Below are positions 13,454 through 26,794 of a stretch of 32,000 nucleotides of DNA, one piece after another. Positions within the stretch are counted from its first letter, which is position 1. Every line of letters starts with the position of its first letter. The position numbers and the translations under genes were made by a program. The stretch is from Halalkalibacterium halodurans (GTDB lineage Bacteria; Bacillota; Bacilli; Bacillales; Bacillaceae_D): NCBI RefSeq assembly GCF_004376175.1, contig NZ_SNUY01000011.1:20341-52340 (forward strand), written 5' to 3'. The notes under the pieces are model-generated. The model did not search any database. It was not told the DNA's origin and saw only the letters and a program-made list of their open reading frames with translations.

Positions 13454-14626
13454 GTGAAGAAAGGGAGTCGACATAATTTCGTGGTTTCACAGGAAAATTG
13501 GACCCTCCATCGAAAAGGTTATCAAGACCAACGCCGCCATCAGGAGAAAGTAAAGGAAGCGATACGGAAAAATCTACCCGACCTTGTGAGCGAAGAAAAC
13601 ATCATCATGTCAAATGGGCGCGAAGTCATTAAAATCCCGATCCGCTCATTGGATGAATATAAAATTCGCTACAATTATGATAAGAATAAGCACGTCGGTC
13701 AAGGGGATGGAGACAGCCAAGTCGGGGACGTGATTGCCCGTGATCCAAGTGCTGGACAGCAAGGACCGGGCAAAGGCCAAGGAGCAGGTGATCAGCCTGG
13801 AGAAGACTATTTTGAAGCAGAAGTGTCGATTCTAGAATTGGAGGAATTGTTGTTTCGCGAGCTGGAGCTGCCGAACTTGCAGCAAAAAGAAGAGGATCAT
13901 CTCGTCGTCGAACATATCGAGTTCAACGATATTCGCAAAAAAGGCTTGATGGGCAATATCGATAAACGGCGAACGATTCTATCTGCAATCAAGCGAAATG
14001 CATTAGAGGGAAGACCTGGACTTATACCAATTTACAATGATGACCTAAGATTTAAAACATGGAACGAAGTGGTCCGCCCAGAGTCAAAGGCCGTTGTCCT
14101 CGCGATGATGGATACATCAGGGAGCATGGGGCGTTGGGAAAAATATATGGCTCGCAGTTTCTTTTTTTGGATGACGCGCTTTTTGCGTACGAAATATGAA
14201 ACGGTAGACATTGAATTCATCGCCCACCATACTGAAGCAAAAGTCGTATCGGAAGAAGACTTTTTCTCAAAAGGGGAGAGCGGTGGGACGATTTGTTCAT
14301 CCGCTTATCGGAAAGCACTCGAGCTCATCAATGAAAAATATGATCCTGCTCGCTACAACATTTATCCGTTCCACTTCTCAGATGGTGACAATTTAACGTC
14401 TGACAACGCTCGCTGCCTTAAGCTTGTGCATGAGCTAATGGAATCGTCCAGCATGTTTGGCTACGGTGAAGTCAATCAGTACAGTTCCTCAAGGTATAAA
14501 CGTTCATCTTTAATGAGTACATTTAGTCAAATCACTAACGTGCGGTTTAGAAACTTTATATTAACAAAGAAGGAAGATATATTTCATGCCCTTATATATT
14601 TTTTTAAATGGAAAGTGGACAATTAG
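13454..14626 (+). CDS. yhbH: YhbH (DUF444, PrkA-partner sporulation protein) with chimeric, phage-derived 3' end
   Basis: GTG start after GAAGGAGG. Colinear with remembered B. subtilis YhbH ([87 protein letters not shown]). The last ~45 codons remain homologous (S.LMS....I....FR..IL..K.D.FHA....FF) but become abruptly AT-rich. Confidence 0.9.
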
Positions 14627-14691
14627 CATGGTGAGTCCGTAATGTCTAATGAAGGCATTTATTTGGTTAGATCAGTAAGAAACTGTCAACA

Positions 14692-14706
14692 ATACTTATT
14701 AAGTAT
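14692..14706. promoter_or_regulatory. Perfect 7-1-7 palindrome upstream of the cargo cassette (candidate operator)
   Basis: ATACTTA-T-TAAGTAT is flanked by an imperfect outer inverted repeat TGTCAACAA ... TTGTTATTGACA. It lies 42 nt upstream of the first cassette gene. No convincing -35/-10 assignment. Confidence 0.3.
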
Positions 14707-14747
14707 CATAGGTTGTTATTGACAATCATCAGTTAGGAGGTGAAAAT

Positions 14748-15044
14748 ATGAGTAAGGGGGGGAAAAATGTGGCGACTCAAATTTATGATAATAAAGAATT
14801 ATTAGTTAAATTAGTGTCCACGGGGATTTTAATGACTGCTGCTAAAGAAAAGGTAGATAACTACTTAAAACAACATAGTATTGTAATTCAGGAAATGATG
14901 GAAGATGAAGAATCGATGGAGTATTTTAATATGTACTATGAGGAGAATGAAGAAGAATTAAAAAATGCAGCAGAACATTCTGTAACAACCTCAGCAGAAG
15001 TAGAGAAAGTCTTGGAAAAGTGGAGAAAAGAGTATGAGTTTTAG
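14748..15044 (+). CDS. Small acidic protein, candidate antitoxin/neutraliser (cassette gene A)
   Basis: 98 aa with RBS TAGGAGGTG 6 nt upstream. The C-terminal half is strongly acidic (MMEDEESMEYFNMYYEENEEELK). The ORF overlaps the MazF-like gene by 11 nt. No RHH/AbrB motif recognised. Confidence 0.6.
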   Translation: MSKGGKNVATQIYDNKELLVKLVSTGILMTAAKEKVDNYLKQHSIVIQEMMEDEESMEYFNMYYEENEEELKNAAEHSVTTSAEVEKVLEKWRKEYEF

Positions 15045-15564
15045 AGGGAAAATTAAAAGGGGAGAAATATATGTTGCTGACTTAGAGCCCACTCTTGGAT
15101 CTGAACAAGGTAAAGAGAGAAGGGTTCTTATTGTTTCTAATGATATCGGAAATTCGAACCCTAAGTCACCTGTAGTGATCGCTTTACCTATAACAGGTGA
15201 AGTTACGCCAAAGAAACTAAAAATGCCTATGTATGTTCAAATTAGACCAAGTAAACTAAATGGTCAAACTAAGATGGCTTTAATCGATTGTGGACAAATA
15301 AGAGTATTGGATATAGATAAGAGGCTTAAGGAATTAAAAGGAGAAGTAGAAAAGGAAGTTTTAGAAGCTGTTGATGCAGCTTTAGAAACAGTCTTACAGA
15401 TTAAGACATGCCCGGCATGTTCAAAAGTATTACTGCCGAATCGAAATCATTGTGTGAGTTGTAAATACATATTGGTAAGAGTTTGTATAAACTGTAATAG
15501 TAAAATAAATAGCCAATACATATTTTGCCCTCATTGCGGGCAAAAAAGGGAGGGAGATACATGA
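15034..15564 (+). CDS. MazF/PemK-family endoribonuclease fused to a C-terminal double zinc ribbon (cassette gene B)
   Basis: Residues 1-125 align with remembered B. subtilis EndoA/MazF (KRGEIYVADLEPTLGSEQGKERRVLIVSNDIGN vs [33 protein letters not shown]; also QIR.LD..RL and V..AL). Residues 126-168 hold four CxxC pairs: CPAC, CVSC, CINC, CPHC. Confidence 0.85.
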   Translation: MSFRGKIKRGEIYVADLEPTLGSEQGKERRVLIVSNDIGNSNPKSPVVIALPITGEVTPKKLKMPMYVQIRPSKLNGQTKMALIDCGQIRVLDIDKRLKELKGEVEKEVLEAVDAALETVLQIKTCPACSKVLLPNRNHCVSCKYILVRVCINCNSKINSQYIFCPHCGQKREGDT

Positions 15565-16073
15565 GAGAGTATCATAAAAGCAAGTTATTGACGAAGCTAG
15601 CAGAACTACTACCTCCCTTTGCTAATTCTTTAATGCAACTTGTAGCTTATATTAATAGTGATAAGGAACTATCCATTACCAAGGAACTATTAAATAGCTT
15701 AACAACCGTAACTCGCGAGGCGGAACAAATTAGGTTGGCTTTAAATAATCAGGCAAAAGAATACGCTAGAATGCTCGAAAATACATCAAGAAAACTTACT
15801 GATAATGAAGTCAATCATATAAAAGAATTTATCGAAATACACCAAAAGTTAATGGCTGCTCATAAAGAAGTCTTACAAGGGATCAATATGCTTATATATC
15901 TTCTAGTCGAAGAAGTAGTTGCGCACAATGACCCAGAACAAACAGGGAAAAAGATGATGGATGAAATTTTAAAGAGTATAGAAGGACCACCTAGTGTTGA
16001 GGAAGCCATAAATAATTTATATTATGGTGCTAAAAAAATCACTGAAGGAATTGATAATATTATAGAAAAATAA
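15561..16073 (+). CDS. All-helical protein of unknown family (cassette gene C)
   Basis: ATG 15561 overlaps the gene B stop as ATGA and is preceded by AAAAGGGAGGGAG. 170 aa, no motif recognised. The track start at 15525 lies inside gene B and is less likely. Confidence 0.65.
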   Translation: MREYHKSKLLTKLAELLPPFANSLMQLVAYINSDKELSITKELLNSLTTVTREAEQIRLALNNQAKEYARMLENTSRKLTDNEVNHIKEFIEIHQKLMAAHKEVLQGINMLIYLLVEEVVAHNDPEQTGKKMMDEILKSIEGPPSVEEAINNLYYGAKKITEGIDNIIEK

Positions 16074-16077
16074 TTAG

Positions 16078-16113
16078 ACAACACCTGCACTTTGTTTAAG
16101 CAGGTGTTGTTTA
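16078..16113 (+). terminator. Terminator closing the cargo cassette
   Basis: ACAACACCTGC (16078-16088) pairs perfectly with GCAGGTGTTGT (16100-16110), followed by TT. Confidence 0.7.
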
Positions 16114-16148
16114 AAATTGTATTAGGGTTTGCCATTTAATTTAGGGCA

Positions 16149-18457: not shown

Positions 18458-18841
18458 TCAATGGCTTTCGTTTTTTTCTCTGGAAGCCATGTCATCCATC
18501 CACTCTATTGCTCCTATATGTGTTCCAGCAGAAACCAATAAGGCTATGATGGCAAATACTATCCCAGCTATTGGACCGCCTAAAGCAGCGCCTATTGCAA
18601 ACCCAATGAGCGTCCAGCAAATAGAAAATATAATAGTTAATATAATTGCCCCTTTTCTAAACCATGTGGTGACGAGTAAAGCAAGTAAAACTAAACCAAA
18701 CACAGCCCAATTAAAAGTTGCTAAACCTGCAATTATAGCAACCACAAAACACTCACCGAATAAAAAGTTGGCAGCACTATCGTTAAATTGAGCTTGGGTG
18801 TTTCCTTTTCTTACATCTTTGTATCCCAATTTAATCCCCAC
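18458..18841 (-). CDS. Small integral membrane protein (3-4 TM, glycine-zipper-like)
   Basis: 127 aa. Hydrophobic stretches FVVAIIAGLATFNWAVFGLVLLALLV, AIILTIIFSICWTLIGFAIGAALGG and IAGIVFAIIALLVSAG. The start is uncertain: GTG 18841 abuts the GGGAG, and an in-frame TTG 12 nt downstream is possible. Confidence 0.6.
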   Translation of the reverse strand: MGIKLGYKDVRKGNTQAQFNDSAANFLFGECFVVAIIAGLATFNWAVFGLVLLALLVTTWFRKGAIILTIIFSICWTLIGFAIGAALGGPIAGIVFAIIALLVSAGTHIGAIEWMDDMASREKNESH

Positions 18842-25887: not shown

Positions 25888-26115
25888 GTGAGGGACGAGG
25901 TGACAGAGTTGAAATACCAAGAAGCTCAACAGGAGCTTAGAAGGATACTTAAGGAGCAGCAAACTGTCAGTGTCCCTAAGCTGAAAAAAATCCTTAATAG
26001 CTTGAATATTTCGCTCAAAAAGCCAAGTTCACAACAGGAGATAGATTATCTGAAAAGTGAAATAAAAAAGCTTAAAAAAATGTTAAAGATAAGGAGCAGA
26101 TTAAATGAAACTTAG
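25888..26115 (+). CDS. Hypothetical coiled-coil protein
   Basis: 75-aa ORF. The start is uncertain: GTG 25888, GTG 25900 or TTG 25909. It overlaps the next gene start. Confidence 0.4.
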   Translation: MRDEVTELKYQEAQQELRRILKEQQTVSVPKLKKILNSLNISLKKPSSQQEIDYLKSEIKKLKKMLKIRSRLNET

Positions 26116-26794
26116 TAGATTTTTCAGGCTTCAAGCGACACTAGATCAACATATCAAGAAGAGAAAAGGCTTGGAAGATAAAGACCTTCTTCTTGATAAG
26201 ATCCAAGCCCTACAAGTGGAACTGGGTGAACTGGCTAACGAATGGCGAGGGTTTAAGTTTTGGAGTAATAAACAAACTCCGGAAGTAGAGCAAGAGGAAT
26301 GCGATTATTGTGGTGAGTACGTAGACCATACAAGACCAAGTCCTTTCATGGGGGATAGTGCCTCAATGTGTAAACCATGTTGGGATATGACAAAGGAAAC
26401 TTATGCATCATCAACTGGTGAACATATTCCTGAATTTGAAGATTACCCGCACTTTAGGAAAAAGGTAGCAAATAAACTTCTAGAAGAATACGTTGATTGC
26501 CTGCATTTCTTCTTATCGATCGGCAACGACCTGAACATTAACGAGAATATGATCTTTAATAAGAGTGGAATCCCAAATGCAAGAACTTTGTTTGCACTCA
26601 TCAACCGCTATGTAGCTGAAATGTGGTGGGTGTATCACGATAAAAAATCAAGTGACGCTGCAGTCAAGTGGTTCCATGCATTCGAACATTATCTACAACT
26701 CGGCGAAGTCCTAGGATTCGCTTGGGAAGAAGTCGAGGAAGCCTATCTAAAAAAGAACGAGATTAATCACGAGCGTCAAGAGTCGGGCTATTGA
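26105..26794 (+). CDS. Dimeric dUTPase-like / all-alpha NTP pyrophosphohydrolase with Cys4 insertion
   Basis: L.VELGELANEWRGFKFW and LLEEYVDCLHFFLSIG resemble the metal-binding helices of the dUTPase_2/MazG-like fold. About 60 inserted residues carry CDYC...CKPC. Confidence 0.5.
   Translation: MKLSRFFRLQATLDQHIKKRKGLEDKDLLLDKIQALQVELGELANEWRGFKFWSNKQTPEVEQEECDYCGEYVDHTRPSPFMGDSASMCKPCWDMTKETYASSTGEHIPEFEDYPHFRKKVANKLLEEYVDCLHFFLSIGNDLNINENMIFNKSGIPNARTLFALINRYVAEMWWVYHDKKSSDAAVKWFHAFEHYLQLGEVLGFAWEEVEEAYLKKNEINHERQESGY

Follow-up and report, generated by a model that had tools for sequence, protein, structure and literature searches.

A cassette of three overlapping genes, here called A, B and C, was analysed in a stretch of 32,000 nucleotides (nt) of Halalkalibacterium halodurans DNA (contig NZ_SNUY01000011.1, positions 20,341 to 52,340), referred to below as the window, to which all coordinates apply. 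The central gene, B, was found to encode a MazF/PemK endoribonuclease extended by a C-terminal double zinc ribbon, and it is flanked by two small acidic proteins of novel families, a predicted all-helical protein encoded upstream (A) and a predicted bundle of about five helices encoded downstream (C). The trio is interpreted as an autonomous operon carried as cargo by mobile elements of the Bacillales, most likely a tripartite MazF-type toxin-antitoxin or abortive-infection module, a reading that we hold with moderate confidence and that draws on comparison of sequences. To our knowledge, nearly all descriptions of MazF toxins, which are among the best-studied bacterial RNases, have so far been of two-gene modules whose antitoxin is of the DNA-binding MazE type. 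The MazF lineage described here has fixed three changes, namely the double-zinc-ribbon extension, a candidate antitoxin without a DNA-binding domain and an obligatory, rapidly diversifying third protein, and the trio travels as a promoter-to-terminator unit on prophages and on elements resembling integrative and conjugative elements (ICEs) of spore-forming Bacillales. A full-text literature search gave no description of a MazF/PemK zinc-ribbon fusion or of the three-gene cassette, which looks like an undescribed variant of a toxin-antitoxin or phage-defence module with two new protein families, A and C.

The zinc-ribbon MazF and its two partner proteins

The three genes lie on the plus strand at 14748–15044 (A, 98 amino acids (aa)), 15034–15564 (B, 176 aa) and 15561–16073 (C, 170 aa), as an earlier note on this DNA had placed them, and the open reading frames were found at these positions. 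The overlaps described there, 11 nt between A and B and 4 nt (ATGA) between B and C, were likewise seen in the list of open reading frames and in the sequence, and Shine-Dalgarno sequences are present 5' of gene B and of gene C. The proteins are identical to the H. halodurans entries E2L07_05540, E2L07_05545 and E2L07_05550 for A, B and C, respectively, where B is labelled only 'PemK/MazF family toxin' and A and C are hypothetical.

The assignment of B to the MazF/PemK family, already regarded as clear in the earlier note together with the zinc-ribbon tail, was borne out by a full-domain match to PF02452 (E-value (E) 7e-25; 87.8 bits against a cut-off of 23.1; profile positions 1–109 of 109 covered), with the domain occupying residues 8–121 (15055–15396, plus strand). 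A profile of the B family matched EndoA of Bacillus subtilis (4mdx) over the whole domain (E 3.9e-25), and the closest solved relatives were B. subtilis EndoA/MazF and Staphylococcus aureus MazF (family profile E ~4e-25). Arg25 and Thr48, the residues responsible for catalysis in Bacillus MazF (PMC7354611), align with R29 and T54 of B; R29 was invariant in 32 of 32 B-family sequences, and position 54 was threonine or serine in 27 of the 32. The C-terminal helix of this domain runs straight into the double zinc ribbon (residues 126–169, 15409–15540, plus strand), in which four CxxC pairs form two consecutive ribbons with two CxxC knuckles each, as in the DZR family (PF12773, 30.4 bits against a cut-off of 27.3; PF17032, 30.9 bits against 28.9). 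The eight ribbon cysteines were invariant in all 32 family members, and the double ribbon is predicted to bind two zinc ions. By homology, B is shown to be the effector, a MazF-family sequence-specific single-strand endoribonuclease.

The zinc-ribbon MazFs group as a discrete clade (E <= 4e-43), and a wide gap lies between them and the canonical MazFs of ~115 aa (E >= 2e-15). Several other database matches were set aside as not belonging to the family: the matches of a metagenome scan (JGI) were canonical MazFs only, with 27–33% identity, a plasmid match with an apparent coverage of 93% (H26) turned out to be a plain MazF of 119 aa, and a second plasmid match (H27) was a standard AbrB-MazE/MazF pair.

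Protein A has an isoelectric point (pI) of 4.7 and a conserved acidic helical core, EMxEDEE...YYEE...AEES. Neither A nor C gave a significant match in Pfam, NCBIfam or PHROGs, the window proteins having been searched in all three and each family member separately in Pfam and NCBIfam as well. A profile search of PDB sequences with A gave no match at E <= 10, and in PDB and BFVD its model was matched by Foldseek only to helical bundles of a generic or de novo kind (E >= 0.03). The AlphaFold2 (AF2) model, computed from two sequences, consists of four helices and no strand (pLDDT, the predicted score in the local distance difference test, 70; predicted template modelling score (pTM) 0.35). Alignment with the antitoxin EndoAI/MazE, whose sequence was checked against 4me7_E, gave an hhalign probability of 0.1. 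These sequence and model tests agree with the earlier observation that A lacks a ribbon-helix-helix (RHH) or AbrB antitoxin motif, and they indicate that A is not a MazE, RHH or AbrB antitoxin; the suspicion that it might prove to be a standard MazE/PemI-family antitoxin was contradicted by every one of them. A resemblance to the C-terminal toxin-binding helix of MazE, suggested by eye from the register 'Y.E.....L....E...TT..E', was rejected on the same hhalign value and on a mean Smith-Waterman z-score of 0.6 against shuffled sequences. A word-indexed search found a single homologue of A, on the same contig as a B homologue. That homologue (P0003, locus L003, 789–1076) carries the JGI label 'DNA topoisomerase VI subunit A', which is almost certainly a mis-annotation.

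Protein C (pI 5.6) was modelled by AF2, from a single sequence, as a five-helix bundle (pLDDT 70; pTM 0.57). Its ends are conserved, with the motif 'L.E.LPP....V' in the N-terminal helix and 'A[IV]..LY.G[AS]K..[IV][ID]' in the C-terminal one, and its middle is hypervariable and rich in insertions and deletions. An exhaustive HMMER search of 1.84 billion representatives returned 12 matches to the C family. Nothing meaningful was obtained from the PDB profile search, and the Foldseek matches in PDB and BFVD (E >= 0.03) were all to helical bundles, either generic or de novo, so the description of C as a helical protein without a recognisable family was upheld. An apparent relationship to a protein of 4,789 aa (P0066) was spurious, that protein being a type IX secretion system surface protein with immunoglobulin-like and DUF285 repeats.

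A self-contained operon on mobile elements

Fifteen distinct B-type loci were compared (this window, L001–L004, L006, L007, L010–L015, L023 and L024, with L005, L008 and L009 as duplicates), in Bacillus, Priestia, Paenibacillus and metagenomes. An A-like gene was found directly upstream of B and a C-like gene directly downstream, on the same strand and in the same order, in all 15, with junctions ranging from -44 to +15 nt. The A-like proteins measure 84–116 aa and the C-like proteins 139–190 aa, and their identities to the window proteins (29–50% and 17–31%, respectively) belong to neighbours that are truly homologous. The possibility, raised beforehand, that C is a moron without conserved linkage did not hold, the C-like gene following the toxin directly at every distinct locus; nor does the B-type toxin occur mostly without its partners, as it was never found without both among these loci. 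Judged from this linkage, the trio is obligatory. The cassette family is restricted to the Bacillales.

The simplest competing explanation is an ordinary two-gene mazEF followed by an unrelated passenger gene, in keeping with the databases, which call B simply a PemK/MazF family toxin. This is effectively refuted and retains a very slight probability at most, because the C-like gene is linked to the toxin in 15/15 loci by overlaps or near-zero gaps; moreover, A is not MazE-like by any test and the toxin carries an invariant extra domain. The two-gene layout of canonical MazEF/PemIK modules is likewise departed from by the conservation of the coupled gene C.

The transcription signals also point to a unit. 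Upstream of the trio, a promoter-like sequence TTGAC[AT]-N16-18-[GC]A[AG]AAT was found in 14 of the 15 distinct loci; in the window it takes the form of a sigma-A-type promoter at 14719–14747 on the plus strand (TTGACA, 17 nt, GAAAAT; 10/12 consensus positions), from which transcription is predicted to start at about 14753–14756. Its spacer ends in GGAGGTG, which is conserved at equivalent positions of L002–L024. Downstream, between gene C and the convergent integrase gene, the strong terminator noted earlier as closing the cassette was confirmed as an intrinsic hairpin at 16074–16114 with a 15-bp stem (folding free energy -21.9 kcal/mol, z = -6.2; none of 200 shuffles was equally stable), and comparable hairpins were found 3' of C in most homologous loci. 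The conserved promoter upstream and the terminator downstream therefore delimit promoter-A-B-C-terminator as a self-contained module.

The annotated ATG of gene A (14748) abuts the -10 element of this promoter. A second start, GTG 14769, is preceded by its own Shine-Dalgarno sequence AAGGGGGGG and coincides with the conserved 'MA..I' N-terminus, so that A may truly begin at GTG 14769, giving a protein of 91 aa. In homologous loci an in-frame start also stands right after the -10 element, and a second Shine-Dalgarno sequence and start lie 7–9 codons downstream. These nested starts would reflect either misplacement of the start by gene callers or two isoforms of A, produced from read-through and own-promoter transcripts.

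A palindromic element upstream of A had been proposed as part of the operon. The palindrome ATACTTA-T-TAAGTAT (7-nt arms) is indeed present at 14692–14706, nested in an outer inverted repeat (14684–14692 and 14716–14724; arms TGTCAACAA and TTATTGACA), and the nested repeats (14684–14724) could be read as an operator, without statistical support: the palindrome is at chance level against shuffles (expected chance matches of order 0.2–2) and its sequence is not conserved in homologous loci. As the palindrome occurs in a single copy in the window, at chance level and without conservation across loci, an operator common to the prophage immunity region was rejected. A hidden RNA component, as in type III-like systems, was also rejected, a scan of the window having given no Rfam or tRNA match. 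On the minus strand, a terminator-like hairpin with a T-run lies at 15523–15545, in the 3' end of gene B; it was the only consensus-scan match in the region, with 0.8 expected by chance, and is probably fortuitous.

The genomic settings of the homologues were found to be varied. The cassette lies directly 3' of an XhlA/holin/endolysin lysis cassette at a prophage end in L004, L007–L009, L023 and L024, and in L013 the preceding gene has a weak Amidase_2 match only. It follows tail genes in L010 and stands beside ImmA in L011, whereas L015 places it on an ICE- or plasmid-like element with FtsK and Replic_Relax and L014 near a resolvase and a tyrosine integrase. By their gene content, most copies are at prophage ends or on other mobile elements, settings that are classic cargo ('moron') positions. 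Identical A-B-C cassettes (100% protein identity) occur with two different downstream neighbourhoods (L007 versus L008 and L009), which indicates that the cassette travels with mobile prophage. In several Bacillus prophages (L007–L009, L024) a YolD-like gene follows immediately after the cassette on the opposite strand.

These settings bear on a further explanation, in which A-B-C is a regulated RNA-processing factor of the mobile element, shutting off the host or acting on the element's own transcripts at induction, with A and C as structural or specificity subunits and without a toxin-antitoxin or defence role. In about half of its copies the cassette has late lysis genes directly upstream, oriented the same way, and SPbeta-like phages co-opt B. 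subtilis MazF activity for the lysis-lysogeny decision. Against this, the cassette has its own conserved promoter and is preceded by a terminator in at least one locus (L003); the copy in the window stands at the integrase end and converges on int; and the cassette is also present in ICE- or plasmid-like and non-phage contexts. An RNA-processing role is accordingly considered improbable.

Proposed division of labour within the trio

The charge pattern of the three proteins is constant across loci, B being basic (pI 8.5–9.3, with 9.2 for the window protein) and both A (4.2–4.9) and C (4.5–5.6) acidic in every locus. On average, pairs of B proteins share 57% identity, against 38% for A and 29% for C, and the order B above A follows the usual pattern in which the toxin is more conserved than the antitoxin. 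Divergence of A tracks that of B more closely (r = 0.72) than does divergence of C (r = 0.44). For the closest pair, the ratios of nonsynonymous to synonymous substitution rates (dN/dS) were 0.17 (A), 0.12 (B) and 0.33 (C), values that are indicative only because dS is near saturation. The zinc ribbon of B is under strong purifying selection (0.04–0.09; 0.09 in the closest pair), and within C the ratio is 0.52 in the middle against 0.09–0.17 at the ends. The pattern indicates that A, B and C are all real genes under purifying selection, with C the fastest-evolving; C is, on this comparison, a protein with conserved docking ends and a fast-evolving core.

In the tripartite reading, A is most likely the neutralising antitoxin, as it is encoded upstream and co-translated with B, has a conserved acidic helical core and diverges together with the toxin; it would be non-canonical because, unlike MazE or PemI, it lacks a DNA-binding domain. 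Translated from the gene that overlaps B on its upstream side, A would be produced in a fixed ratio to the toxin, and its acidic helical core would fill the basic groove in which the B dimer binds RNA. C would be an obligatory third subunit, translationally coupled to B and docking by its conserved terminal helices, probably on the zinc ribbon, where it might either reinforce neutralisation or serve as a trigger-sensing subunit with its hypervariable middle exposed. A precedent for the former is PasC, which strengthens neutralisation in its own system. Loss of the element, or a superinfecting phage that perturbs A or C, would then free B, and free B would cut cellular and phage RNA and arrest growth, so that the element would be stabilised by post-segregational killing or the infection aborted.

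The opposite assignment, in which C is the direct antitoxin and A an accessory protein (for instance an adaptor, C's chaperone or a factor that regulates expression of the operon), is regarded as rather unlikely. It could be argued from the acidity of C in every locus, its invariable presence and coupling to B by the ATGA overlap, and its conserved terminal helices, which suggest a fixed binding partner; toxin-antitoxin systems with a downstream antitoxin, such as higBA and hicAB, are also known. However, it is the divergence of A that better tracks that of B, the antitoxin of MazF-family systems normally lies upstream, and the denser conserved acidic segment is in A. Another arrangement, in which A and C are two independent and partly redundant antitoxins used under different conditions or from different transcripts, as in SpoIISABC, would agree with two small, acidic, helical proteins that are both always present, and the two nested translation starts and the promoter within the 5' region hint at condition-dependent expression. 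It is nevertheless judged to have a low probability, as there is no sequence relationship between A and C (hhalign probability 0.13) and both are kept under purifying selection in 15/15 loci, which argues for non-redundant roles; the same hhalign value led to the rejection of A and C as SpoIISB/C-like paralogues.

The cassette shares with MazEF (EndoAI-EndoA, or NdoAI-NdoA) of B. subtilis and PemIK of Staphylococcus a homologous toxin domain (E 4e-25 to EndoA) with the catalytic Arg and Thr kept in B, a small acidic protein encoded just upstream and overlapping the toxin gene, and the combination of a basic toxin with an acidic partner. It differs from them in having three conserved genes instead of two, an invariant C-terminal double zinc ribbon on the toxin and the novel-family protein C. 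The differences extend to A, in which neither an RHH or AbrB/SpoVT DNA-binding domain nor a MazE-like tail or other detectable MazE/PemI similarity was found. With the tripartite systems (PasABC, omega-epsilon-zeta, PaaR-PaaA-ParE, HigBA-SecB 'TAC', SpoIISABC and mazEF-mazG) it has in common a toxin, a neutraliser and a third modulating protein, and the antitoxin-toxin-helper order matches that of pasABC and mazEFG. None of these systems has a MazF-zinc-ribbon fusion, and their known third components (SecB chaperone, RHH or helix-turn-helix repressor, MazG nucleoside triphosphate pyrophosphohydrolase, paralogous antitoxin) were not detected in A, C or their family members with Pfam and NCBIfam, so that the cassette falls outside TAC/SecB, omega-epsilon-zeta, PaaR-PaaA-ParE, SpoIISABC and MazEFG.

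The small proteins AimX and YosL of SPbeta-like phages offer another parallel. Bacillus MazF/MazEF acts in phage defence, and these phage proteins neutralise MazF (10.1101/2023.04.27.537455). Like A, they are small proteins from Bacillus temperate phages without a MazE-type DNA-binding domain, but they are recognisable homologues of the MazE C-terminal tail and target the host MazF, whereas A and C show no such similarity and are encoded with their own toxin.

A more specific proposal is that the zinc ribbon of B, together with C, is a direct sensor of an invading-phage protein or assembly, the cassette being an anti-phage abortive-infection system in which MazF is held off by A and licensed through the middle of C, and which prophages would use for superinfection exclusion. 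In RAZR (PD-T7-4), a fusion of a zinc finger with an RNase acts as a phage sensor, and the zinc-finger domain sets the phage specificity (PMC13017515). The cassette would follow a sensing logic similar to that of RAZR and of the fused toxin-antitoxin CapRel, with entirely different parts, and its likeness to them lies in domain logic: a Cys4 zinc module, an RNA-targeting toxin and carriage on mobile elements. RAZR differs in that one gene encodes it, with the zinc finger at the N-terminus and an RNase of the HEPN (DUF4145) type, whereas the cassette has a MazF fold, a C-terminal double ribbon and two obligatory extra proteins, and there is no homology; B gave no HEPN or DUF4145 match, the Cys4 finger with DUF4145/HEPN and the Rx4-6H motif being the marks of RAZR. 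RAZR is a functional analogue only. A MazF-like domain has also been recruited into a Gabija variant. These precedents (MazEF defence, RAZR and the Gabija variant) lend plausibility, not membership, and the direct phage-sensor proposal is viewed as possible and rather unlikely.

Several results weigh against the tripartite toxin-antitoxin or abortive-infection reading. A has no similarity in sequence or fold to any antitoxin, and the acidity of both A and C means that charge does not single out the neutraliser of B. A recognisable DNA-binding domain is absent from all three proteins, so that the autoregulation typical of type II toxin-antitoxin systems has no evident basis in them. The residue equivalent to Thr48 is neither threonine nor serine in 5 of the 32 B-family members, and the AF2 models of A and C are only moderately confident. 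In PADLOC-DB v2, A and B had no match and C had weak partial matches only, to ZorA (the best; E 2.7e-4, 97/545 positions), Cas2 and Csm2, consistent with generic helical similarity, so that none of the three belongs to a catalogued anti-phage defence system of that database. The family is rare: B sequences fall into ~33 clusters when grouped at 90% identity, C sequences are covered by 12 representatives at 50% identity, and searches of 50,697 sequenced phage genomes and of IMG/VR did not turn up the cassette. The proposal of the earlier note, a tripartite toxin-antitoxin or abortive-infection type system, is nonetheless supported by the analysis, in which none of the refuting outcomes named in that note and accessible to computation was observed; the function itself is one that we infer.

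If this reading is confirmed, the cassette would represent a new tripartite architecture in toxin-antitoxin and abortive-infection biology and would define two new protein families. It would also provide a tractable model, with homologues in the B. subtilis group, for the way in which accessory domains and subunits gate a MazF RNase, and could show whether trigger sensing by zinc ribbons is widespread in immunity based on RNases.

Prophage context and base composition

On one side of the cassette in the window is a junction within the 3' end of yhbH, and on the other a convergent gene for a serine integrase. The yhbH gene (13454–14626, DUF444), upstream of the cassette, encodes a protein with ~77% identity to its Bacillus thuringiensis orthologue up to residue ~343 (nt ~14480), and the last 43 residues have ~40% identity to the Bacillus orthologue, with an indel of 4 aa. 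The GC (guanine plus cytosine) content falls from ~0.45 to ~0.32 at the same place. The coincidence of the identity break with the drop in GC indicates that the element was inserted in the 3' end of yhbH and supplied a replacement C-terminus, and the left element boundary (the left attachment site, attL) is placed approximately at 14470–14500, inside the yhbH 3' end. The yhbH reading frame has been kept intact despite the insertion of a prophage with a large serine recombinase in its 3' end. As yhbH is a sporulation gene, the insertion recalls the intervening elements in other sporulation genes of Bacilli.

Downstream of the cassette, the minus strand encodes a large serine recombinase (Resolvase, Recombinase and Zn_ribbon_recom domains), an ImmA/IrrE metalloprotease, a small membrane protein and an Xre-type repressor. 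Farther to the right are genes for regulators, a Sak4-like protein, the loaders DnaD and DnaC, RusA, a MazG-like nucleoside triphosphate pyrophosphohydrolase and Ant. By its gene content, the region to the right of the cassette is the lysogeny and early region of a temperate phage. The earlier placement of the cassette between the yhbH/prophage junction and an oppositely oriented integrase agrees with the YhbH break, the GC drop and the integrase, ImmA, Xre and replication genes beyond.

The GC content of the cassette is 0.34, compared with 0.427 in the flanking host DNA and 0.415 in the prophage, which places it in the lowest 2.6% of equal-sized windows, and the 60-nt block with the lowest GC in gene C reaches 18%. 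The AT-richness reported in the earlier note was therefore confirmed, but the independent acquisition that had been read from it was not, because the ImmA-Xre lysogeny module is almost equally AT-rich (GC 0.347) and AT-richness alone is no proof of separate acquisition.

Two neighbouring prophage genes deserve mention. The MazG-like nucleoside triphosphate pyrophosphohydrolase (26105–26794, plus strand; phrog_173, E 2.5e-38) is encoded 10 kb from the MazF cassette; the mazEFG operon of Escherichia coli has mazG as its third gene. The small, apparently hydrophobic and likely membrane protein encoded between the ImmA protease and the Xre repressor (18458–18841, minus strand; phrog_15014, E 3e-21) may be another lysogen-expressed cargo or exclusion gene.

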